In this document: positions 3,732-51,510 of the stretch, one piece after another
How the letters are laid out: each line of letters opens with the position of its first letter
Position numbering within the stretch: position 1 is the first letter of the stretch
Virus record (IMG/VR): IMGVR_UViG_2617270943_000003
Location: 1 to 53,880 of that record
Reading direction: 5' to 3' (one strand)
DNA length: 53,880 bases
Source: a virus
Taxonomy: Duplodnaviria; Heunggongvirae; Uroviricota; Caudoviricetes
Notes under the pieces: generated by a model
The model's database searches: none
What the model saw: only the letters and a program-made list of their open reading frames with translations
Told to the model about the DNA's origin: nothing
Translations under genes and position numbers: made by a program

Positions 3732-5153
3732 TTAAAAGGATGCGTTATTCTGGTTATTTCGTGGGGAGAATCGGCTTGCTGCCGGACGTTGTTGCATTGA
3801 CTGGATGCAGGCGGACGCCGCGCGAGCCTGGTTGCATGGAATGATGTTGCCGTTATCGTCAAACCACTGGTAAACAGTCCCCGTTTTCCCGTGACGGTTT
3901 TTTGAAACGATGATCTCCATGTATTCGCGGGCAACCGATTGTTCGTTGTAGTAGCCGTCGCGGTAGACCATGATGATCCGGTCTGCGTCCTGTTCAAGAT
4001 TACCGGAATCACGCAGATCAGAATTGTTCGGGCGCTTGTTCGGTCGTTCCTCAACGCGGCGGGATAATTGCGCCAGCGCCGCCACTGGCACGCGCAACTC
4101 TTTCGCCATCATTTTCAATGACCACGACAATTGCCCTACGGCGAGATCATGACGTTCGGCCTTAGCCAGCTTCATTAACCCGATGTAGTCAATCATTACC
4201 ATCCCCAGGTTAGGATGGTCCTGTTTCATCCGTTCGACGGTGGCGCGTATTTCCTCGACCGTTAACTGCGATGCGTCAACAATCCACACATCGAGATCGG
4301 CAAGGGCACTCATTCCCTGGGCGACGTGCGCCCAACCTTCGTCATCCAGTTTTACCGGATTACGTAGGCAATCCGTTGATAAGTTCCCAGCGCCAGCGAT
4401 AGCACGTTCAGTCATCTGATCGAGCGACATTTCAAGCGTGAACAGCAAAACGCCGACCCGCTGACCTTCGCCGCCAGGGTATGGACGTTCAGCCGCCGCG
4501 CGGGCAATTGCCAACGCCAACGCCGATTTACCAGACCCCGGACGTCCGGCGATAAGCACCAGATCAGTAGCGTTAATGCCTCCTAACATTTCGTCGAGTG
4601 GGTCAATCCCTGTTTTGATGTTGTCAGAGTTCACGCCACACTCCATGCGTTTACTTAGCACTTCCGTGTACTCCTGTACCGCGTCGCGCAACAGCACCGG
4701 AATAATCTTGTCTTTCGTTACTTTTAATTTTGAATACCGGGAATCAAAATATTTCATCGTCTCCCTGACAGCTTCAAGTGTCCCGGTTTCCAGGTTGTAG
4801 CGTATATCGTCCATCAGTTCCAACATTTGCCGCCGCTGATATTCCTCCTGTAATAGAGCGGCGTACCCCTTAAGGTTGGCAGCAGATGGACACGATCGCG
4901 CCGTTTGCATTAGCGGGACAAAATTTTCGTTACCGATTTCATCACCGACCATCAGAGCGTCAATAAGGTTTCTGTTTCTTGCTTGCGCCCGGATGATCTC
5001 AAACGCTCGTTTATATAGTGGAATGGTGAAGACTTCAGGATCGAGCGTAGCAAGAACATCTTGCGCGTTAGGAGTAAGCCCGCCCAACAGGAGGCCACCT
5101 ATCACGGCCGCTTCCCGTTCCTGGCGTAATGAGTTTATTTGCTCAGTCACCAT
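3732..5153 (-). CDS. Replicative DNA helicase, DnaB family
   Basis: DnaB N-terminal domain (AAVIGGLLLGG...KRAFEI), Walker A GRPGSGKSALALAIA, Walker B VMIDYIGLM, and DnaB C-terminal motifs (SRRVEERPNKRPNNSDLRDSGNLEQDADRIIMVYRD). Confidence 0.9.
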   Translation of the reverse strand: MVTEQINSLRQEREAAVIGGLLLGGLTPNAQDVLATLDPEVFTIPLYKRAFEIIRAQARNRNLIDALMVGDEIGNENFVPLMQTARSCPSAANLKGYAALLQEEYQRRQMLELMDDIRYNLETGTLEAVRETMKYFDSRYSKLKVTKDKIIPVLLRDAVQEYTEVLSKRMECGVNSDNIKTGIDPLDEMLGGINATDLVLIAGRPGSGKSALALAIARAAAERPYPGGEGQRVGVLLFTLEMSLDQMTERAIAGAGNLSTDCLRNPVKLDDEGWAHVAQGMSALADLDVWIVDASQLTVEEIRATVERMKQDHPNLGMVMIDYIGLMKLAKAERHDLAVGQLSWSLKMMAKELRVPVAALAQLSRRVEERPNKRPNNSDLRDSGNLEQDADRIIMVYRDGYYNEQSVAREYMEIIVSKNRHGKTGTVYQWFDDNGNIIPCNQARAASACIQSMQQRPAASRFSPRNNQNNASF

Positions 5154-7997: not shown

Positions 7998-8303
7998 CTT
8001 GTTTTTCTCCTATGGTTAGAGTGAACGCGCGGGCGGGCATCCCATTAGCATTAGATAGCAGTGACTGACCGCTGAACAGATCCCGCCGTTGCGTGATATT
8101 TGTTTTTCGCTTCGCAGCGACACCGGGTTTTTAAAGAGCTTAAGGTATGTGCCTTTTTGTGCCTTCCGTTATCTTTTTCCTTGCGTCTTTGCAAGTATGG
8201 CCTTACCTTGTCTGCAAGTTTACAAAATGGAATTTTAAGATCAAGGCTTAAAATACACGTTTTGTGACTTGCATCAAACTTTTTGAGGTTATAGGGTAGC
8301 GAC

Positions 8304-8951
8304 ATGAAAACAAAATGGTATGACTTAGCAAAGCAGCTCATGCGGGCGCAGGGCATGAGTCAGGATTCACTCGCAGATCTCATGGGGATAACTAAAGGCG
8401 GCCTGTCACACTGGCTTAACGGTCGCCGCGAGCCAAATCTTGAAGATATTGCGCGGATTATGCGGGCGCTTGGGCGTCGTCAGTTCACTGTTACACATGA
8501 TGGTATGGTCATTGATGATTCTGTTTCTAATACACTTCAGGCCGCACCGCCGCGTGATTTAGGTAGTTACCCGGTTATTGACTGGAAGGACACAGTAAAC
8601 AATATGGATGACACAAGGCGATCAGCATTACCACACGTTACGACTAGCGTTATTTGTTCAGATGATAGTTACTGGCTGGTTGCCAAAGGTGAATCAATGA
8701 ACGCGCCGCAGGGGTTGAGCATCCCGGCGGGGACGATGATACTTGTTGACCCGCACGCGCCAGCTATTGACGGCAAACTGGTTATAGCCCAGCTTGAGGA
8801 AGGGCAGATACCGACGTTTAAACAGTTGATTATTGATGGAGGTCAAAGGCTTTTACGTTCGCTCAATCCGCTGTATCCGCCAATCCCTATGAATCCAGAA
8901 TCAAAAATTATAGGCGTGGTGGTTGATGCGAAGATCGTAAACCTGCCATAA
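8304..8951 (+). CDS. cI: CI-like prophage repressor (XRE HTH + LexA/S24 peptidase domain)
   Basis: N-terminal HTH (MSQDSLADLMGITKGGLSHWLNGRREP) and C-terminal S24 autopeptidase motifs (AKGESM, catalytic Lys in VVDAKIV). Confidence 0.9.
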   Translation: MKTKWYDLAKQLMRAQGMSQDSLADLMGITKGGLSHWLNGRREPNLEDIARIMRALGRRQFTVTHDGMVIDDSVSNTLQAAPPRDLGSYPVIDWKDTVNNMDDTRRSALPHVTTSVICSDDSYWLVAKGESMNAPQGLSIPAGTMILVDPHAPAIDGKLVIAQLEEGQIPTFKQLIIDGGQRLLRSLNPLYPPIPMNPESKIIGVVVDAKIVNLP

Positions 8952-8981: not shown

Positions 8982-9073
8982 GCCTGGAAAACACCAAAAC
9001 GTAAACAGAAAACGTTATTTATTATTTAAATATCAATGGCATATAAAATATTTTAAAAAAGTATACAAAATGG

Positions 9074-9102
9074 ATTGACTCGGTGTTTTACGGGGCGTAT
9101 AT
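9074..9102 (+). promoter_or_regulatory. Sigma70-like promoter (TTGACT-17bp-TATATT) for the rightward early operon
   Basis: Consensus-like -35 and -10 with 17-bp spacing; flanked by the inverted repeat TTGACTCG/CGAGTCAA (9074-9111) and preceded by GTATACAAAATGG. Confidence 0.4.
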
Positions 9103-9451
9103 TGCGAGTCAAAGGAAGGGCGCAGGTAACAAAAGCAACTTCCTGGCACTTTAAAAATCAGGCTTAACACCTTGTCAACCGTGGAGTAACTCCCCGATGG
9201 GGGACCGAAAGCGGCACTGATAACAAGGCGCATGGGGTGTTTAAAGCGTTACATCCCCCACGAAACCGCACGCAAGGCGACGAGTCAGCTTGCTTGGAGT
9301 GAGCAAGGTCACGCCGGGAACGGCGATGATTGCGGGATTAGTTGAAAGATGTTAAGCCGCTCATTAACAATCTGGTCAGCCGCTGGAAGTGCGGCAATTA
9401 ACGAAGATGATTTTTTATTAAGTGTCATCAAGGATATACGGAGATCAGATT

Positions 9452-9742
9452 ATGAGCGTTACAATTATATATGGTAAATGTGATAGCAAAATGAATGCCA
9501 GGGAACGCAGAAGGATAAAAAGAGAAAACGAAAGAAAATCATCACCTGCAATCAATAAAACAGACAATGTGGATAAAGCTATTCGATTTGCAAACGAGGA
9601 AAGATGCAAACCAAATAGCATTAAAGAACGTCGCAAAGGATCAGTAAAATGGTATACGGAAAATGAAAGCGGCAGCTACTACCACGCAACGCAACCACGC
9701 CATTTAGGGGAAAAACCCCTGGATAAAGTCCGCTATCATTAA
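9452..9742 (+). CDS. Candidate N-like antitermination protein (arginine-rich motif)
   Basis: First gene after the early promoter; basic 96 aa protein with N-terminal arginine-rich stretch NARERRRIKRENERK; preceded by a ~340-nt untranslated leader. Confidence 0.35.
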   Translation: MSVTIIYGKCDSKMNARERRRIKRENERKSSPAINKTDNVDKAIRFANEERCKPNSIKERRKGSVKWYTENESGSYYHATQPRHLGEKPLDKVRYH

Positions 9743-25292: not shown

Positions 25293-25750
25293 AGGCGTTA
25301 ATTATCGCCGCTGTTGTTTGCATTATTGCCGGACTTACCGCCGTAACGTGTTATTACCAGGGGGAAACGGCAAGGTTACAGGAAGAAGTCACGGTGACGA
25401 AAGGCGCACTGAAAACGGCAAGTAACACTATTCAGCAGATGAAGGAGCGAAACGCCGAACTGTCAAAACTTGATAAGAGGTATCACGATGAGATTAAAGC
25501 TATCAGATCTGACATTGCCGATCTGCGCACTGGCATTGATAACGGCACTATCAGGCTGCGCGTCAACGCAATACCCGTGCGAGTGTCCGACTCCGCCGAA
25601 TCCGCCAGCCGCATTGATGGAGCCTCCTGTAGACTCACTCCCGACGCTGAATCGGCTTATCTATCCCTCAGAGAACAACTAAAAGAGAAAGATGCGAAGA
25701 TAACCGCGCTTCAGGGCTACATCAAAACACAGTGCTTACGCAAAGAATAA
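25262..25750 (+). CDS. Rz: Spanin, inner membrane subunit (Rz-like)
   Basis: N-terminal TM helix then coiled-coil periplasmic domain; overlaps lysozyme 3' end; contains embedded Rz1. Confidence 0.7.
25488..25682 (+). CDS. Rz1: Spanin, outer membrane lipoprotein subunit (Rz1-like), embedded in Rz
   Basis: Lipobox ITALSGC and Pro-rich mature region ([17 protein letters not shown]), entirely within Rz in another frame. Confidence 0.7.
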   Translation: MRLKLSDLTLPICALALITALSGCASTQYPCECPTPPNPPAALMEPPVDSLPTLNRLIYPSENN

Positions 25751-36583: not shown

Positions 36584-37060
36584 ATGTCTCAGACTTGCGA
36601 AAATGGCGCTTTTTTGGGCCGCGACGTTGCTGTATTCTTCGCTATCGCTTGTCCAAATGCTAAGCCGTCAGATGACGATTACAAAGCGTTAGGTATGATG
36701 CGTGGTAAGACGCTTTCCGTCGAATGGGAAACCGCAGACGCCACCGCTGATAAATCAGCAGACTACACGAAAGAATCAATGGTTACTTACAAATCTGTTT
36801 CTTTCTCCGGCGATGGTGTATCGCGTACTGAAGAAATCCACAACCAGAAGGCATTGAAACGTCATACCATTAACCCTGGTGAAACTACTGGCAGTCAACC
36901 TTATGTATGGCTGAAGATTGTTTCCCCGGTTGACGTGATTGAAGGGCCGTTCCTTTGCACTTCCTTTAAAGAGGAAGACCCTCACGATGATGTTTCAACC
37001 TGGTCTATTGAGTGCTCAAGCGCTGGTAAAGTTACCGCTGGTGACATCCCGGCAGCATAA
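36584..37060 (+). CDS. Putative major tail (tube) protein
   Basis: 158 aa ORF followed by a terminator, upstream of chaperone and tape measure genes. Confidence 0.45.
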   Translation: MSQTCENGAFLGRDVAVFFAIACPNAKPSDDDYKALGMMRGKTLSVEWETADATADKSADYTKESMVTYKSVSFSGDGVSRTEEIHNQKALKRHTINPGETTGSQPYVWLKIVSPVDVIEGPFLCTSFKEEDPHDDVSTWSIECSSAGKVTAGDIPAA

Positions 37061-37100: not shown

Positions 37101-37113
37101 TAGGGTGAAAGTT

Positions 37114-37791
37114 ATGATTCATGTTCGAACAGGACAATTTGCGGCGATGGTAGACGGCAGGCGGTACGTGTTTAATCCCTGCTTCGCTGCAATGGCTAAG
37201 ATCGGCAGTGACAGCGAACTGGTCGAATACTTCGCAACCATCCACGGTGGCAAATATCCATCACGATTGCCAGCAGATCCAGACCTTCGCAATCGCATTC
37301 TGGCGCGGTGTTATGGTGAGATAGTGCAAACGTCAATGCATATTCTGAAATGTTGCTCAGACGACGAAATAGGCCCGTTATTGGGTGAATGTAGGTTTAC
37401 TCCTTCCGGCAAATTGCGACTAAAACCCGGACTGATGCCGACCAGTGACGTTATCACGCTGGCGCAACATTGCATGTATCACGGTTTAATCGGTGACGGG
37501 CCAGAAGAAGACGCCGAAGAGATCCGGGAAGGGGAATATAAGCCGACTTTTAACGTGCTGGAATTCGTTTATTCTGCCGTAGCTCACCTGGGGTTATCAG
37601 AATCAGAAGCATGGAATATGACAATGACCGGATATAGGGCAGCCGTACGCGCTAAAACGCCGCCAGACGAAAGAAACGAAAGAAGCAAGCCAAACGTTCA
37701 CATAAATAAACGTGCTTATGACGAGCAAATGGAGGCCGCTAAAAGGGTGTTAGAAATGATGAAAAATCGTGAGCAAGAAAAAGCCCGGTAG
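37114..37791 (+). CDS. Putative tail assembly chaperone
   Basis: Location between tail tube and tape measure genes; ATG at 37114 with AGGGTGA upstream. Confidence 0.45.
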   Translation: MIHVRTGQFAAMVDGRRYVFNPCFAAMAKIGSDSELVEYFATIHGGKYPSRLPADPDLRNRILARCYGEIVQTSMHILKCCSDDEIGPLLGECRFTPSGKLRLKPGLMPTSDVITLAQHCMYHGLIGDGPEEDAEEIREGEYKPTFNVLEFVYSAVAHLGLSESEAWNMTMTGYRAAVRAKTPPDERNERSKPNVHINKRAYDEQMEAAKRVLEMMKNREQEKAR

Positions 37792-37816
37792 ATCCGGGCG
37801 TTTTTGTTAAGTTCGC

Positions 37817-38137
37817 TTATGCTATTTTTTCGTAAAGCACATTCATCTGTGTGCGAATTACTGTTAATATATTGATTGCTGCGTTCTTATTAATGCGTTT
37901 ATTCGCTACTATTTTTGTTTTCCCATCAATAACAACCAGATCTGCGTGCAATACATGGTTGAAGTTGACAATGTAATAATACTGTTTATCGCCAACATGT
38001 TGAACATATGCACCATTTAGATTTCCTTTATACCCACAATCACGCTCTGCGACACCGAAGTCAAATTCGCGGTTCATCTTGCGATTATATGCTACTTGTT
38101 TATGTTCCCATTTTCTCATCCATTCATCGCGTTTCAT
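37817..38137 (-). CDS. Hypothetical protein (accessory cassette A, gene 2)
   Basis: 106 aa opposite-strand ORF inserted between tail chaperone and tape measure genes. Confidence 0.5.
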   Translation of the reverse strand: MKRDEWMRKWEHKQVAYNRKMNREFDFGVAERDCGYKGNLNGAYVQHVGDKQYYYIVNFNHVLHADLVVIDGKTKIVANKRINKNAAINILTVIRTQMNVLYEKIA

Positions 38138-38146
38138 GTTTCACCC

Positions 38147-38806
38147 TTAATTCCAGTTGCAAGCGTTTTTTACTTTGTCGATGTGGTTATAAAGACCATC
38201 AATGTTAAACACTGCTTTCTCAATGTCGCCAGCTTCCGGCACTACTTCAATGATAAATTGTTTTTCGTTAACCAGATTTTTAATCATTGGGATGGCTTTT
38301 TTGTCGTTCCATAATCCAAGAGCTTTATAGTTAGTTGACCGCCCCCATTCAGTGGCTACAGCTTTGTGATCGCCGATCCGGTAGTTAATATAAGTAGCGT
38401 CCCCGGCGTCAGTTACACGGTGTGACCATGCTACGAACATTTTTGTTTTATTACCCTGGCAAGCAATTGTTAATACCGGTTTATTCTTATCCTGTGCCTT
38501 CAGTGCCGGGAAGGCATCAAGACTTCCGCTAAAATGATCTGCTTTCACAAAAAGGAACACGTTTTTTGTGTCCTGCATATCATCTTTTCTTTCGACCACA
38601 AGCCACTGTTTACCAGCTTTTTCTTTTGCTAACTGTGCCTCATATGCGGCTTGTTTTGCTTGTTGTTCCGCAAGCCATTTAGCATTTTTCTCAGCCAATG
38701 CTTGTTGTTCTTGAGTGGTCACTATAGGCGCTTTTTCATTATCCTCATTGCAACCAACCAGACCCAATACCGCCGCAATCATTGCCACTTTTGCTAACTG
38801 TTTCAT
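38147..38806 (-). CDS. Lipoprotein (accessory cassette A, gene 1)
   Basis: Signal peptide with lipobox MIAAVLGLVGC, then an Ala/Gln/Lys-rich helical linker and a C-terminal domain. Confidence 0.6.
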   Translation of the reverse strand: MKQLAKVAMIAAVLGLVGCNEDNEKAPIVTTQEQQALAEKNAKWLAEQQAKQAAYEAQLAKEKAGKQWLVVERKDDMQDTKNVFLFVKADHFSGSLDAFPALKAQDKNKPVLTIACQGNKTKMFVAWSHRVTDAGDATYINYRIGDHKAVATEWGRSTNYKALGLWNDKKAIPMIKNLVNEKQFIIEVVPEAGDIEKAVFNIDGLYNHIDKVKNACNWN

Positions 38807-38986
38807 AACCCACCACGCTTAGTTTTTATTTTTAAGTGATTTTAACATTTCTTCAATGAAATCCGCATAGCGTTCATGTTCGTTGGGACGGTAGTTTACG
38901 TTTTTCATTTTCTTGTCCTCTTTTGCTTCCTCCGGTTCATCCGGTCCTTTTAAATCCCTTTACTCTATCCATTTCCTTTAGCCTCT

Positions 38987-39028
38987 TTATACAAAATGTA
39001 TTCGTTGAAGTGAAGCCATTTTGTATAA
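38987..39028. repeat. Perfect 12-bp inverted repeat TTATACAAAATG-N18-CATTTTGTATAA in the divergent promoter region
   Basis: Read directly from the sequence; lies between the minus-strand lipoprotein gene and the tape measure gene. Confidence 0.8.
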
Positions 39029-39066
39029 AATAGAGACATAGATCACATCTTGTATGAGGTTAAATC

Positions 39067-41409
39067 ATGGCTACCAGTGTAGGTACAATTTATTACGAAG
39101 TTGACGCGAAAACTGGTCAACTTCTCGTTGCGCAGCGCCAGGCCGACCAGGCTTTTGACCGTATAGAGCGCGGCGCAAAACAGGCTGACCGCCAGGTAAA
39201 CACCCTGAAAACATCCATCAAGGCGCTAACCAGGGTTATCCATCTGCTAATTGCTGCGGAGGCTGTGCGCCAATTCATGGATATGGCGGAGCAAGCAAAA
39301 ATGCTTCGCGTAAAAATCAAAATGCTGACAGGTGATGCGGAGTCTGCCGGACGGGTTTTCGACGGCCTGAAAGCAATATCAAAAGAAACAGGTCAGAGCA
39401 TGAAGGATACAGGTGATCTGTGGCAAGGCCTGGCTATCTCACTGAAGAACACGTCCGCCACTGAAGGGCAATTGCTTAATCTGGTAGGTACGATTCAGAA
39501 AATGGGGGCGTTGGGTGGCGCGTCAGCGGAACAGATGTCTAACTCCATGCGTCAATTCCGTCAATCCATAGACGGCGGCGTGCTGCGTGCTGAAGAATTC
39601 AACAGCCTGTTAGAGAACACCCCAACCATCGTGCAGACAATGGCCCGCCAGATGGGGTTATCAATGGGTCAATTCCGCGCAGAAATGCTGGATGGCAAGA
39701 TCACAGCTGAAAGGATGGTCAACGCAATCCAGGCGGCTACGCAGGAAACAAACGAGAAGTTTGCACAGTTGCCGCGCACATCCGGTATGGCCCTGAATGA
39801 GCTTAAAGTCGAGGTTATGGGACTTGTTGAGCAATTGGATGATCTTTTCGGTGTATCCGATACGGTTGTTGCTGGTATCGATCTTGTAACGAAAGGTGTT
39901 AAGGCTTTAGGTGAAGGCGCTGATTTCGCTAAAACCTGCTTTAACACCCTGAATACGGCTGGTGGCGAATTCATCGACATGTTTGAAGATGTCAGAATCA
40001 AGGCTGGCGAGGTAGCCGAGAAGATCATCGCAATGGTGACGCCAATCAAGGCACTAATGGACGCCTACAAATGGATGAAGGAGGTCGTAGGAGAGCAAAC
40101 CGACGAATATAACAGCAACTACGAGAAGAAATACGGTAAGACCGTTGGCAAGGTCATGCAATTACAGGATGATCTGACCGCAGCAATCCGGGCTACAGAG
40201 GAAGCAAGGAAAAATGAACAGAATGCCGCCAATGACGGAGTGATTACCGGATTCGACAAGCCAGTAGACAAACCGAAAAAACAGAAAAAAGAGAAGAAAT
40301 CTGAAGCTGATCGGCTTGGTGACAAAGGCATAAGCGTTTCTGACCAGTACAACAAAGACGCCGCCGCTATGCGCAAAGCATTAGAGAACGGCAAGGCCAT
40401 TGATGCTGCATTCGCCCAGGGTAAAATCACCCTCCTTGAGTACCGCGCCGCGCAAAAAGGGATAGGTAAGGAACTGAAGGAAGAATTAGCACAAATTCCG
40501 GTAGAGGAATTGCGCGACAAATGGGAGCAAATAGTAAGCCCGATGGATCAGCTAAAGGGCGAAGTAGACCCTATTCAGCAGGTTCAAAATGAATGGGCCG
40601 TCCGTAAGCAAATGCTTATCGACCTGGGCGTGACGGAAGCGCAACAGAAACAGGAACTGTTAGCCTATGAGCAACAGATCCGCGATCTGAAGTGGGAACA
40701 ATGGCAGGCGCAAAGCGACACAAACGGCCTTATCGGTGATTGCGTTAATGGCCTTAAAGGCGGCATGAGTAATGCGCTTGTTGGCCTGCTTAACGGTACT
40801 CAATCGTTGAGCGATGTTTTTGCTAACTTAGGGAGCAATATACTAGGGAATATCGGCAACAGACTTTCTGATATAGCTGCCAACTGGATAGCAGATCAGA
40901 TAATGATGGAAACGCAAAGCAAAGCGACTCAGGCAAGTACCACGGCGGGCGCGGTAGCGGCGCAAGGCCAGATTGCTGCGGCGGCGGCCCCGGCGGCGGC
41001 GGCAACAGCGGCATCAACTGGCGGCGCATGGGCTGCGGCTGGTTCGGCGGCACTTACTGCGATCATGTCGCTGGCTACGTCAATTTTTGGAGGCGGTCGC
41101 TTTAATGGTGGTAGCGTTATTGGTGGCAATATGTACCGTGTCGGGGAACATAACAGGACGGAGCTATTCCAGACATCTAACGGAAATCAATACATGATCC
41201 CCGGCGAGAATGGCAGGGTTATTCCTGGGCGTGATATTGGCGGTGGCGGCGGCATTAGTATGCCTGTCAATATCAACATTCAGACCACAAACGGATTTAG
41301 CGACGAAGACAGTCGCAGACTTGAGCAAACAATGGAACGTGTAGCAATGAAGATGATAACAAGGGAATCACAAAGACCTGGCGGAATATTGCAACCGCGC
41401 CGCAAATAA
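39067..41409 (+). CDS. Tail tape measure protein
   Basis: 780 aa, largely alpha-helical, with Gly/Ala-rich C-terminal segment; canonical position. Confidence 0.85.
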   Translation: MATSVGTIYYEVDAKTGQLLVAQRQADQAFDRIERGAKQADRQVNTLKTSIKALTRVIHLLIAAEAVRQFMDMAEQAKMLRVKIKMLTGDAESAGRVFDGLKAISKETGQSMKDTGDLWQGLAISLKNTSATEGQLLNLVGTIQKMGALGGASAEQMSNSMRQFRQSIDGGVLRAEEFNSLLENTPTIVQTMARQMGLSMGQFRAEMLDGKITAERMVNAIQAATQETNEKFAQLPRTSGMALNELKVEVMGLVEQLDDLFGVSDTVVAGIDLVTKGVKALGEGADFAKTCFNTLNTAGGEFIDMFEDVRIKAGEVAEKIIAMVTPIKALMDAYKWMKEVVGEQTDEYNSNYEKKYGKTVGKVMQLQDDLTAAIRATEEARKNEQNAANDGVITGFDKPVDKPKKQKKEKKSEADRLGDKGISVSDQYNKDAAAMRKALENGKAIDAAFAQGKITLLEYRAAQKGIGKELKEELAQIPVEELRDKWEQIVSPMDQLKGEVDPIQQVQNEWAVRKQMLIDLGVTEAQQKQELLAYEQQIRDLKWEQWQAQSDTNGLIGDCVNGLKGGMSNALVGLLNGTQSLSDVFANLGSNILGNIGNRLSDIAANWIADQIMMETQSKATQASTTAGAVAAQGQIAAAAAPAAAATAASTGGAWAAAGSAALTAIMSLATSIFGGGRFNGGSVIGGNMYRVGEHNRTELFQTSNGNQYMIPGENGRVIPGRDIGGGGGISMPVNINIQTTNGFSDEDSRRLEQTMERVAMKMITRESQRPGGILQPRRK

Positions 41410-41415
41410 ACAAAA

Positions 41416-41442
41416 CCCCGGCACAATGCCGGGGCTATTTTT
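41416..41442. terminator. Bidirectional rho-independent terminator after tape measure gene
   Basis: CCCCGGC-ACAAT-GCCGGGG hairpin flanked by A-run upstream and T-run downstream. Confidence 0.65.
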
Positions 41443-41626
41443 ATTCAATTTCATCATTTTTAAATTCGCCGTTTACATAAAGCTGTAATGCTTTTATTAG
41501 TTCAGCGGCTTGCTTTTTGTCTATTACAATCATTTCGCAGTCGCTCACGATCCATAATCGCCCATCCTCTTCAATGCTAAGATTAATCCCTCTACATTCT
41601 TGCGTTTCATGAATAATCATTATCAA
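41441..41626 (-). CDS. Hypothetical protein (accessory cassette B, gene 4)
   Basis: 61 aa opposite-strand ORF. Confidence 0.4.
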   Translation of the reverse strand: MIMIIHETQECRGINLSIEEDGRLWIVSDCEMIVIDKKQAAELIKALQLYVNGEFKNDEIE

Positions 41627-41658
41627 CCTCCATTGTGTTATTAATTACATGAATAAAT

Positions 41659-41853
41659 TTACTCAAAACTTGTATATCCTCTCACAATTTTTCCGCCTCT
41701 TGCGCTTTTTGCAAATACAGCGTCAGTGTATCTGAAAAACGGTTCTGTGTATGTCTCACCTTTGCTATCCATCCATTTAACCACCCAGGCCATGCGTTTA
41801 ATGTTGCTTTTGCTTGCTGTAGTTTTCATTTTGTTTTCCTCCGCAACATTCAA
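41659..41853 (-). CDS. Hypothetical protein (accessory cassette B, gene 3)
   Basis: 64 aa opposite-strand ORF. Confidence 0.4.
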   Translation of the reverse strand: MNVAEENKMKTTASKSNIKRMAWVVKWMDSKGETYTEPFFRYTDAVFAKSARGGKIVRGYTSFE

Positions 41854-41860
41854 ATCCGAA

Positions 41861-42115
41861 TCACTTGTGAGCGCCTTTCACCCCACAGTGCCTGTTATAT
41901 TCCAGATGATCGATGATTAACCAGACTTTGAGATCTTCGCTAAACAGCCGCCAGTCAGGATTGATATCGAATTTAAAGCCATAACCATCGCGTAACTTTT
42001 TGGGGCGCGCCTCTTTCTTCAAAAATGCTTTAAGCAGTTCCTTACCTTTCTTGATAATCCGGTCCTGTGCGTTTTTCTGTACTTTCAGGTTTTTGTCAAT
42101 CGCTACCAGTTTCAT
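41861..42115 (-). CDS. Hypothetical basic protein (accessory cassette B, gene 2)
   Basis: 84 aa Lys-rich ORF. Confidence 0.45.
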   Translation of the reverse strand: MKLVAIDKNLKVQKNAQDRIIKKGKELLKAFLKKEARPKKLRDGYGFKFDINPDWRLFSEDLKVWLIIDHLEYNRHCGVKGAHK

Positions 42116-42134
42116 AGCTCACCCCCGATTATCC

Positions 42135-42290
42135 TTAATTAAGAGCCTTCAGGAAGAAATCACGGTATTCATCTTCTTTTGCATTCATCATGAATTGACC
42201 GTATTTGAATGCGTCGTCGAAACCCTTAACGATTGCTATTTCCACTTGTTCGAATGCGTTGTTTAGCATTACCACTACATAGCGTTTCAT
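42135..42290 (-). CDS. Hypothetical protein (accessory cassette B, gene 1)
   Basis: Start placed at MKRYVVVML, preceded by GAAGGAGG; the track ORF extends upstream to 42365. Confidence 0.4.
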   Translation of the reverse strand: MKRYVVVMLNNAFEQVEIAIVKGFDDAFKYGQFMMNAKEDEYRDFFLKALN

Positions 42291-42458
42291 TTTGGGCCTC
42301 CTTCGTTGGTACTGCTTTTCTTCTTGCTTTCTATATACATCTTGTTGCGTACTATGTGAAGCCATTTTGTAAACTAGCTATAATCATTGTGATGAAGATC
42401 TCATTTTTCGCGTAGAAGCGCGTAAAGATATATACAAAATGTAACTTATGGGGGTTTT

Positions 42459-43246: not shown

Positions 43247-43450
43247 TTAAGGTAACTCCACTTCGTTAAATGTAACAAGCACCCCTTGATTTTCTTTATT
43301 TATAATTATGAAGGCATTAATTGAAGGCAGACATCTTTCCACGCGGTAAACGTCACCAATATCTAAACTGTAATATTCTGTTAATTCTCTATTGTTCCCT
43401 TTAGCAAAACCCGTAAACCTAACCATTCCTTGACCGTCGTACTTTAACAT
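43247..43450 (-). CDS. Hypothetical protein (accessory cassette C)
   Basis: 67 aa opposite-strand ORF. Confidence 0.4.
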   Translation of the reverse strand: MLKYDGQGMVRFTGFAKGNNRELTEYYSLDIGDVYRVERCLPSINAFIIINKENQGVLVTFNEVELP

Positions 43451-43458
43451 ATACAGTC

Positions 43459-43707
43459 CTATAGGTTATCACGCAGATAATTAACGCCCTTATCAGTGAC
43501 GAATGAATGATTAACCTGGTTTTCATCCGTCATGATGATGAATAACTTTTCCTGTAGGTATTTCGCTTTCGGGTACAGCGTTAAACAGACCTGGTACAGT
43601 ATCCCGCGCTCAATCAGCAAATCAATAAATTCGTGCTCATGATAACCGACGAGGCGGGCGGCCTGTTTCAACGTGTACACATAATCGCCGTGATTGCGCC
43701 ACGCCAT
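43459..43707 (-). CDS. Hypothetical protein, possible HTH (accessory cassette C)
   Basis: 82 aa; segment YTLKQAARLVGYHEHEFIDLLIERGILY resembles a helix-turn-helix. Confidence 0.4.
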   Translation of the reverse strand: MAWRNHGDYVYTLKQAARLVGYHEHEFIDLLIERGILYQVCLTLYPKAKYLQEKLFIIMTDENQVNHSFVTDKGVNYLRDNL

Positions 43708-43716
43708 TTTGCCGCC

Positions 43717-44064
43717 TTATTTATCGAATACTGAAAGGTTATCGATGCAGAAATCTTTTGCCGCTTTTTCGTATTCGCGTTTTGCTTCAGGATCATCTGC
43801 CGGGAAACCGTGCGCGTGTATTTCGCCAGGGCAAGACTGGTCCATAGAATCTGCATAATAAGCAGCGAAGCTACCATTAATATCTTTCGGGTTCATATCT
43901 TCCACCTCATCAACTATCTGTACCGGATTAGCAGCATATTTCACTGGATGGCCTAAACTACATTCAAGAATCCTGCCTTCTTCCAGGGCTACTTCTTCGC
44001 TATCAAATAATCCGAAACACTCCTTGCTACCACTTATCCACACATCAAGACTGTATTTTTGCAT
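43717..44064 (-). CDS. Hypothetical acidic protein (accessory cassette C)
   Basis: 115 aa opposite-strand ORF. Confidence 0.45.
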   Translation of the reverse strand: MQKYSLDVWISGSKECFGLFDSEEVALEEGRILECSLGHPVKYAANPVQIVDEVEDMNPKDINGSFAAYYADSMDQSCPGEIHAHGFPADDPEAKREYEKAAKDFCIDNLSVFDK

Positions 44065-51237: not shown

Positions 51238-51262
51238 CCCCGCTTCGCGCGGGGTTTTCTTT
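51238..51262. terminator. Bidirectional rho-independent terminator between J and the convergent lipoprotein gene
   Basis: CCCCGC-TTCGC-GCGGGG hairpin with A-run upstream and T-run downstream. Confidence 0.65.
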
Positions 51263-51510
51263 TAGTAGTTAGCTACACAATTCGACGGGCTACCTATGCG
51301 GCGCATGTTGTGATCGAGTTCATGACACCATTGACCAGTATACGGAAGTTTTTCAGTGTCATAGACGAGATGACCGTCAGCATCATAGACAATTTCTTGT
51401 GGGATTACTCCGCTATTTGGCAGGTTATGCAATGCAGCTTCTTTATCAACAGCGCAACCAGTAAGAGCAACAGCCGCAGCGAATAAGACCACTTTGAACA
51501 TGTTTTTCAT
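51262..51510 (-). CDS. Small lipoprotein, Cor-like candidate
   Basis: Signal peptide with lipobox AVALTGC; 82 aa; opposite-strand gene between J and the tail fibre gene, the usual place for cor. Confidence 0.4.
   Translation of the reverse strand: MKNMFKVVLFAAAVALTGCAVDKEAALHNLPNSGVIPQEIVYDADGHLVYDTEKLPYTGQWCHELDHNMRRIGSPSNCVANY

Follow-up and report, generated by a model that had tools for sequence, protein, structure and literature searches.

Two genes transcribed against the direction of a phage tail operon raise the question of how they came to stand there and what their products do. The operon is encoded in the window analysed here, i.e., the whole stretch of 53,880 nucleotides (nt) of the IMG/VR virus record IMGVR_UViG_2617270943_000003 (Caudoviricetes). 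As described in the original prediction, the plus-strand genes for a DUF6246 protein (37105-37791) and for the tape measure protein (39067-41409) are separated by two minus-strand open reading frames (ORFs). These encode a lipoprotein of 219 amino acids (aa; 38147-38806) and a 106-aa protein (37817-38137), and are spaced by 9 nt. Comparison with related loci strongly supports an opposite-strand accessory insertion, a so-called moron, at the chaperone/tape measure junction and argues that a core tail component is excluded. The region appears to be one allele of a hypervariable moron slot that phages of the mEpimmI group keep between the DUF6246 and tape measure genes. Regarding the function of this slot, a prophage-expressed envelope function for defence or exclusion is given a probability of about 0.5.

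An exchangeable slot in the tail operon

For the comparison of the junction, 76 loci with DUF6246 homologues were taken from viral contigs, together with several Escherichia coli prophages. In seven distant relatives, whose DUF6246 proteins are 31-38% identical to that of the window, the DUF6246 and tape measure genes abut or lie 3-100 base pairs (bp) apart; according to the ORF calls, they overlap by 4 nt in locus L073 and are separated by 54 bp in locus L064. All of the close relatives (55/55) carry 650-1320 bp of minus-strand cargo at this position. The comparison of the junction in related phages, which had been proposed as a check, confirms the insertion, and the assignment to a moron position holds.

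The cargo of the 55 close relatives consists of about seven unrelated modules that occur in at least 12 combinations. The VasI-like lipoprotein of the window is found in 20 and the 106-aa protein in eight of the 55 loci, so that the conservation of a core tail component, which was also looked for, is not seen for either gene. The other modules are a 124-aa lipoprotein with weak BamE-like matches (13 loci), a 137-aa secreted protein known as mEp021_63 (17 loci), a 100-aa membrane protein together with a 35-aa peptide (10 loci), a secreted protein of 116-165 aa (8 loci), and a 245-aa lipoprotein (1 locus). Signal peptides, lipoboxes or transmembrane segments are present in nearly all of this alternative cargo. 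In phages mEp021, MagusPhagus and others, the slot is occupied by unrelated genes; flank identities of 83-99% are seen in phages with such replaced cargo. The slot gene gp63 of mEp021 is annotated as a hypothetical protein, and the adjacent genes are labelled as virion structural proteins.

The base composition of the cassette also deviates. Its GC content of 39.1%, compared to a median of 46% in the window and 47-51% in the flanks, is the lowest of all 1.27-kb stretches (lowest 0.2 percentile), and the GC content at third codon positions (GC3) is 0.34-0.39 compared to 0.43-0.53. It is the combination of abutting genes in distant relatives, varied cargo in close relatives and deviating base composition that leads to the reading as a moron.

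On the left side, homology to all relatives breaks at 37802-37814, just past a terminator that is described below, and an internal break is found at 38132, exactly at the start of the 106-aa gene. The right break is located at 38814-38819 and, in some relatives, at 38764-38784 within the signal-peptide codons. Unrelated cargo proteins of the loci L002, L015, L037, L043, and L108 have near-identical signal-peptide starts (MKRLAKVA..., MKRLIKAA..., MKRLVKVA...), and DNA homology reaches into the shared signal-peptide codons of the cargo genes (38764-38806 in the window). Because of these shared starts and the homology extending into the respective codons, the signal-peptide coding region appears to be used as a recombination joint for cargo exchange.

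The two cargo genes are independently exchangeable modules without functional pairing. In 12 loci, the lipoprotein gene is followed by the gene for the 124-aa lipoprotein, which replaces the 106-aa gene, and in one locus it stands alone. Conversely, four other prophages have a copy of the 106-aa gene with 72% identity, which stands after an unrelated 160-aa secreted protein and before the 124-aa lipoprotein. Among 5426 complete E. coli genomes, a DUF6246 gene of the window type is encoded in 31, the lipoprotein gene in 15 and the 106-aa gene in one. Purifying selection acts on both cargo genes, as the ratio of non-synonymous to synonymous substitution rates (dN/dS) amounts to 0.17-0.24 in the lipoprotein gene and to about 0.24 in the 106-aa gene. 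The cargo of the slot is non-essential, horizontally exchanged and selectively maintained, it consists mostly of exported proteins, and the platform for its expression is conserved.

The window is a complete or near-complete phage of the mEpimmI group. This group, which has been described in PMC11893012, comprises mEp021-like, Nus-dependent temperate siphophages that are non-lambdoid, and the placement among lambdoid phages has to be corrected in this respect. The DNA identity of the tail region of the window to mEp021, mEp010, their relatives and Escherichia phage MagusPhagus is 81-92%. The DUF6246 gene (PF19759, E=2.4e-56) is preceded by the tail tube gene (36584-37060, PF06199) and followed, beyond the slot, by the tape measure gene (PF20155 TMP_3, E=1.2e-48; phrog_1538, E=2.3e-154); DUF6246 and tape measure genes are both part of the backbone. 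The label as tail assembly chaperone can be kept for the DUF6246 protein as a putative one, since it derives from the gene position between tail tube and tape measure genes and from weak TAC_11 and TAC_6 matches.

In a DUF6246 lineage that is 39% identical, two same-strand lipoprotein genes are found at the same junction (4767-5123 and 5142-5564 in L057, also in L061). These genes indicate that lipoprotein cargo is drawn to the junction in at least two lineages.

The platform upstream of the cargo

The cassette had been described as a two-gene unit with its own promoter region (38807-39066) that is bounded by terminators. A third gene had been missed in this description, namely a micro-ORF encoding 29 aa (MKNVNYRPNEHERYADFIEEMLKSLKNKN) at 38819-38908 (-), which opens the minus-strand unit and has a good ribosome-binding site. 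It is part of the conserved platform. The micro-ORF occurs in 35 related loci with 21 DNA variants, in which the first, second and third codon positions account for 8, 2 and 15 variable sites, respectively. Many codons show synonymous differences only, and one in-frame indel of 3 nt is present. From the variation at third positions, the synonymous codons and the in-frame indel it is concluded that the micro-ORF is translated. The micro-ORF precedes unrelated cargo types, and in M1/5-type prophages the region 38820-38968 is deleted. It is not annotated in the GenBank records of mEp021 (L002, 3755-4012) and MagusPhagus (L001, 3841-3945). The MagusPhagus record contains a 34-aa coding sequence on the plus strand within the micro-ORF interval, which is probably a mis-call. 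A 34-aa ORF across the neighbouring palindrome (MQKCDLCIYF...) was rejected as a gene; it is an artefact of the palindrome and joined the micro-ORF cluster only via one fused reading of 74 aa.

The perfect inverted repeat noted in the original prediction is real, while its membership in the cassette is not supported. The palindrome (38986-39029) has perfect arms of 13 bp (38986-38998 and 39017-39029), which are copies of the motif TTATACAAAATG and lie within 18-nt arms of 89% complementarity. Folding of the hairpin yields z-scores of -4.1 and -5.7. The palindrome hardly varies among six relatives that carry four different sets of cargo, and relatives with wholly different cargo retain palindrome, micro-ORF and the stretch up to the tape measure start codon. 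As they are kept whatever the cargo, the palindrome and the promoter region are regarded as phage backbone outside the insert.

Termination could be assigned to the left end only. There, a bidirectional intrinsic terminator (37783-37799) with a stem of six G-C pairs (GCCCGG/CCGGGC), T-runs on both strands and fold energy z-scores of -4.9 and -3.8 serves both the DUF6246 gene (+) and the cargo unit (-), and coincides with the left recombination boundary. Like the promoter region, this terminator is backbone common to every cargo allele and was not brought in by the insert. The palindrome on the right was considered as a terminator and rejected, because it lacks a U-tract and belongs to the conserved backbone.

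A standard consensus promoter scan of 38807-39066 did not reveal any promoter, and a match of 9/12 is only obtained if TATAAA is allowed as -10 element. The resulting candidate sigma-70 promoter of the cargo unit (38986-39025, minus strand) consists of the motif TACAAAATGG (39025-39016), the -35 element TTCACT (39014-39009), a 17-nt spacer and the -10 element TATAAA (38991-38986). This fixed geometry of motif, 1 nt, -35 element, 17 nt and -10 element is reached with at least 9/12 matches by 0.07% of background positions. Among 17 motif copies, three have this layout: the early promoter at 9064, the minus-strand copy in the palindrome, and the copy at 42371 at the head of a minus-strand island. 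The layout supports a real leftward promoter, for which one palindrome arm would provide an upstream element and the other arm the -10 element; it does not specify the timing of expression. With three of 17 copies fitting the geometry, the recurring TACAAAATGG motif was rejected as a constant mark of promoters.

The motif itself is enriched in the window. Its 12-mer form (up to 2 mismatches) is found 22 times compared to nine expected occurrences, a number not reached by any shuffled sequence. The form (A/T)GT(A/T)TACAAAATGG has 17 sites on both strands, including 9064, 16682/16756, 22571, 38990/39025, 42371/42433, and 51615. Most motif copies lie between ORFs and near gene starts. Neither the slot nor the motif nor TagO is mentioned in the publication on mEpimmI phages (PMC11893012). 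CRP-like palindromes of the type TGTGA-N6-TCACA (up to 1 mismatch) occur nine times in the window compared to 1.7 expected, namely at 8263, 11526, 13135, 16700, 22550, 28099, 42388, 44330, and 51627. Several of them adjoin copies of the TACAAAATGG motif, including those upstream of an Lpp gene and between divergent units at 42.4 kb. These sites hint at a catabolite or other common control of accessory units.

The early promoter (9064-9103; TTGACT-17-TATATT) is located in the immunity region, where it follows a gene for a CI-like repressor (HTH_3 and Peptidase_S24 domains; 8304-8951, +) and a strong terminator. It lies upstream of a gene (9422-9742, +) whose 106-aa product contains an N-like, arginine-rich motif (MNARERRRIKRENERK). 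Two further minus-strand islands interrupt the tail operon at 41441-42365 and 43247-44064. The first has the same promoter layout as the cargo unit and encodes a protein with a ParE-like toxin domain (41861-42115, PF24732), and the second encodes an ANT/KilAC-domain protein (43459-43707).

The two cargo proteins

The 219-aa protein is predicted to be a lipoprotein with a signal peptide II. Its N-terminus, MKQLAKVAMIAAVLGLVG followed by the cysteine, shows a positively charged n-region, a hydrophobic h-region and a lipobox of the type [LVI][ASTVI][GAS]C. The LVGC lipobox that had been noted is formed by L16-V17-G18-C19, and L16, G18, and C19 are invariant among 13 homologues. The predicted arrangement of a helical linker and a C-terminal domain was also borne out, as the AlphaFold2 model has an Ala/Gln/Lys-rich helix at residues 31-63 and a beta-sandwich at residues 68-216.

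The original prediction had not recognized a family for either protein, which holds for the 106-aa protein but not for the lipoprotein. The latter matches the Pfam family VasI/TagO (PF11319) with 54.1 bits compared to a gathering threshold of 26.5 (E=2e-14; residues 55-218, profile positions 25-184 of 184) as well as phrog_1848 (E=1.8e-56). Near-identical copies are labelled TagO by the Prokaryotic Genome Annotation Pipeline. The cut-off of 124.2 bits of the NCBIfam equivalog TIGR03360 for VasI of type VI secretion systems (T6SS) is missed by the lipoprotein with 41.4 bits; for comparison, VasI of the T6SS of strain EDL933 scores 257.4 bits and other phage copies score 26-76 bits. The identity to EDL933 VasI is 31% over the C-terminal 112 aa, and both cysteines and the FNIDGL...AC.W motif are kept. 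The genuine vasI gene of EDL933 (EDL933_RS01165) is located between tssH and tssA, whereas the neighbours of the lipoprotein gene are the tail tube, DUF6246, and tape measure genes. As PF11319 is passed, TIGR03360 is failed and 31% identity to EDL933 VasI is found, the lipoprotein is read as a diverged VasI superfamily branch carried by phages, namely as a periplasmic module for protein binding that has a disulfide bond and sits on a helical stalk of about 33 residues and about 5 nm.

No sequence match was found for the lipoprotein in the PDB. A Foldseek search of its model against viral models returned uncharacterised phage proteins alone. The fold resembles the beta-sandwich of IalB (invasion-associated locus B, PDB 3dtd) at 8% identity, with no Pfam match to the IalB family itself. 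Further differences concern the biological context, which is unrelated for IalB. The lipoprotein has no match among virulence families, and it has no Pfam, PHROG or PADLOC match to the receptor-matched exclusion lipoproteins Cor, Llp, and mEpimmI Lpp.

As accessory cargo, VasI-like genes are found repeatedly in temperate phages that are unrelated. In P2-like phages they are found at the prophage end, and in Brucella phage BiPBO1 such a gene directly follows the repressor gene. In Pasteurella phage Pmp14, an unrelated siphophage, four small genes (L086, 1997-3920), the last of which is VasI-like, are inserted between tail assembly chaperone genes and a large downstream ORF that presumably encodes the tape measure protein; these small genes share the strand of the tail genes. 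In locus L107 a VasI-like gene is divergent from the DUF6246 gene. A VasI-family gene of a Citrobacter rodentium prophage has been listed as putative virulence cargo (PMC6456863), and the function of VasI/TagO is given as 'unknown' in a review from 2026 (PMC13584744).

The 106-aa protein is a genuine orphan under purifying selection. It has no match in Pfam, PHROGs, NCBIfam, PADLOC or PDB sequence profiles, and a tblastn search of 50,697 phage records found nothing. A word-indexed search of 5.8 billion proteins revealed only three close clusters, and an exhaustive hidden Markov model search of 1.84 billion representatives found its own cluster and the protein P0016 only. P0016 (4834 aa, E=6e-39) was rejected as a homologue, as 46 weak repeats sum to a false E-value in this tandem-repeat artefact. 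It is probably a wrong-frame translation of a DNA repeat and an example of how summed repeat scores can fake homology. The low-confidence model of the 106-aa protein consists of two helices, a four-strand meander and a long helix, and has no significant structural neighbour. The protein is lineage-restricted and apparently cytoplasmic.

A probable envelope function and its alternatives

In the proposed mechanism, the conserved platform, consisting of the palindromic region with its sigma-70-like promoter, the micro-ORF, the ribosome-binding site and often the first signal-peptide codons, would drive leftward transcription. It would be followed by exchangeable cargo, and the unit would end at the bidirectional terminator common to the chaperone gene. 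Neither cargo gene would be required for building the tail; instead, the cargo unit would be expressed from the prophage and would alter the cell envelope. The lipoprotein, a disulfide-bonded beta-sandwich of VasI/IalB fold that the helical stalk would keep at a distance of about 5 nm from the lipid anchor, could most likely act as a periplasmic binding module hindering something that crosses the envelope. The favoured target would be the tail tip or the DNA-entry channel of heterologous superinfecting phages, leading to superinfection exclusion as by gp15 of phage HK97. We infer expression in the lysogen, membrane localisation and exclusion activity from these comparisons.

Within the reading as an envelope defence, exclusion of heterologous phages at a periplasmic step is suggested only tentatively, somewhat short of an even chance. 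It is favoured because of the position of HK97 gp15, the exclusion lipoproteins of mEpimmI phages, the envelope theme of the cargo and the VasI-like homologue next to the repressor gene of BiPBO1. Gene 15 of HK97 was the first element to be called a moron and is located at the chaperone/tape measure junction (PMC3594210). Its product is made from the prophage and prevents DNA from entering (PMC3594210, reviewing Juhala et al. 2000 and Cumby et al. 2012). HK97 gene 15 and the cargo unit have in common the junction, a deviating composition, an envelope protein and, as predicted for the cargo unit, independent transcription, and both have diverged from bacterial homologues of unknown function. 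However, gp15 is a small YebO-like protein of the inner membrane, whereas the cargo of the window is a 219-aa VasI-fold lipoprotein plus an orphan, and a Pfam scan of the window gave no match to the YebO family. Unlike HK97 gene 15, the slot is a multi-allelic hot spot with a conserved platform of promoter and micro-ORF, and exclusion would here be deduced by analogy.

The lipoproteins Lpp021 and Lpp010 of mEpimmI phages have been shown experimentally to exclude phages (PMC11893012). Like the cargo lipoprotein, they are encoded by prophages of this phage group within the structural gene cluster, are transcribed against the tail genes, and have a copy of the TACAAAATG motif upstream. They differ in having no sequence relationship to the cargo lipoprotein, in their size of about 80 aa, in their position downstream of the tail fibre gene, and in being paired with the receptor type. 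In the window, a gene for an 82-aa lipoprotein (phrog_12984) is found at 51262-51510 (-), shortly downstream of the tail fibre gene. Its identity to the ORF at the equivalent position in mEp010 is 94%; this ORF presumably encodes Lpp010, a type-C exclusion lipoprotein that experimentally excludes LamB-dependent phages and lambda (PMC11893012).

A further related arrangement is that of TaiEcA/AtiEcA of phage phi80, where an opposite-strand defence gene lies inside the late operon as a 'noncontiguous operon' (PMC11364771). Both cases share a divergent accessory gene that interrupts a late operon and to which late read-through would be antisense; in its swappable cargo, the slot also resembles phage or satellite defence hot spots. 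By analogy, the opposite-strand unit of the window would meet antisense read-through during lytic growth. However, there is no homology to Tai or Ati, a counter-defence partner is not evident, and the cargo of the window slot consists almost entirely of envelope proteins. The T6SS protein VasI/TagO (PF11319, TIGR03360; VCA0118, EDL933_RS01165) shares with the lipoprotein a homologous C-terminal beta-sandwich, the cysteine pair, the FNIDGL...AC.W motif and predicted periplasmic export, but has a plain signal peptide in place of the lipid anchor with helical stalk. The two also differ in genomic context, tssH and tssA on the one hand and a prophage tail operon on the other, and the lipoprotein stays below the TIGR03360 cut-off (41 versus 124 bits).

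Several observations weigh against an envelope function in defence or exclusion. The 106-aa protein has neither a signal peptide nor a hydrophobic segment, i.e., no envelope signal and no assignable role. PADLOC has no defence-family match for either cargo protein. The residue after the lipid-modified cysteine (+2) varies among the 13 homologues (N, R, G, D, E), so that the membrane localisation is without obvious conservation. Only three motif copies have the promoter layout and one of them is the early promoter, which means that the cargo unit could fire early in lytic growth and is not necessarily lysogen-specific. The window already possesses an Lpp-type exclusion lipoprotein. Furthermore, VasI-like cargo is found together with C-terminal ends of the tail fibre J that are 98%, 64%, 53% or undetectably similar, and phages with J ends of 79-83% similarity carry other cargo.

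The idea that the cargo type follows the receptor-binding end of tail fibre J was rejected, as no co-variation is seen. A block of the phage's own receptor by the lipoprotein is unlikely, because a separate Lpp gene is present (51262-51510) and the cargo type is independent of the tail-fibre end.

Among the alternatives to a function in defence or exclusion, another type of lysogenic conversion ranks first, although it is considered unlikely. Here, the lipoprotein would be a host factor of the Bor/Lom or IalB type acting in adhesion, invasion, serum or stress resistance, or envelope stabilisation, with no role against phages or T6SS. Morons often encode such factors (PMC3594210), and mEpimmI prophages are frequently encountered in E. 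coli from the gut and in pathogenic strains (PMC11893012). However, the likeness to IalB is that of a generic beta-sandwich at 8% identity, virulence-family matches are missing for the lipoprotein, and the fast combinatorial turnover of envelope cargo resembles arms-race loci more than housekeeping fitness genes.

Slightly less probable still is a T6SS-related conversion, in which the lipoprotein would mimic or decoy VasI/TagO and thereby modulate the T6SS of the host or shield the lysogen from T6SS attack. True homology to VasI speaks for it, with PF11319 passed, 31% identity to EDL933 VasI and both cysteines kept, and many E. coli strains have a T6SS cluster including vasI, as seen for EDL933. 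The listing of VasI/TagO function as unknown (PMC13584744) is compatible with a T6SS role, as is the VasI-family gene among the putative virulence cargo of a C. rodentium prophage (PMC6456863). On the other hand, the score of 41 bits is far from the equivalog cut-off of 124, with real VasI reaching 257 and phage versions 26-76 bits, and the gene lies in a tail operon outside any T6SS cluster. In sister phages, unrelated envelope proteins fill the slot. VasI-like genes are also carried by Brucella and Pasteurella phages, and T6SS is not a known feature of these hosts. E. coli K-12 is not known to have a T6SS either. This is the strain on which mEpimmI phages grow (PMC11893012).

An obligate two-component system, be it a toxin-antitoxin system, an effector-immunity pair or a lipoprotein plus a cytoplasmic partner of its own, is very improbable. 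Such a pair could explain why the genes form one operon with a spacing of 9 nt and why the 106-aa gene is always found downstream of a secreted protein. It is largely refuted because the genes assort independently. The lipoprotein is found 12 times with the 124-aa lipoprotein instead and once alone, the 72%-identical copy of the 106-aa gene stands behind an unrelated protein in four prophages, the genome counts are 15 versus one, and a homology break falls exactly at the start codon of the 106-aa gene. Least probable of all are lineage-specific core genes for tail assembly or lysis in the lytic cycle, to which the position inside the tail operon and a weak Rz-like spanin match over signal peptide and helix (phrog_812, E=0.052) could point, since the cargo is on the opposite strand, is replaced by unrelated genes in phages with 83-99% identical flanks and is missing from distant relatives, and since the phage, judged by its sequence, encodes its own o-spanin-like lipoprotein at 25488-25682.

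A prophage-expressed envelope function in defence or exclusion can be extended to a speculative and rather doubtful generalisation. According to this, phage lipoproteins of the VasI/IalB fold would form a widespread, so far unrecognised group of exclusion proteins in the periplasm, binding injection machines that span the envelope, for instance tail tips, tape measure channels or T6SS spikes. Their target would then reveal the role of VasI/TagO, and the platform would be a dedicated device for the exchange of envelope cargo within signal-peptide codons.

The element as such belongs to a known class, as it occupies a classic moron position; the points of interest are the micro-ORF platform, the recombination joints and the recurring VasI-fold phage lipoproteins. 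If the lipoprotein excludes phages or blunts contact-dependent attack, it would represent a new fold among prophage envelope defences. It would also open a first functional access to the VasI/TagO superfamily, the T6SS role of which continues to be listed as unknown. With about seven unrelated envelope proteins that are apparently all expressed from one conserved platform, the slot forms a compact natural collection in a phage group that is common in the human gut, and is convenient for screening for new lysogenic-conversion functions.

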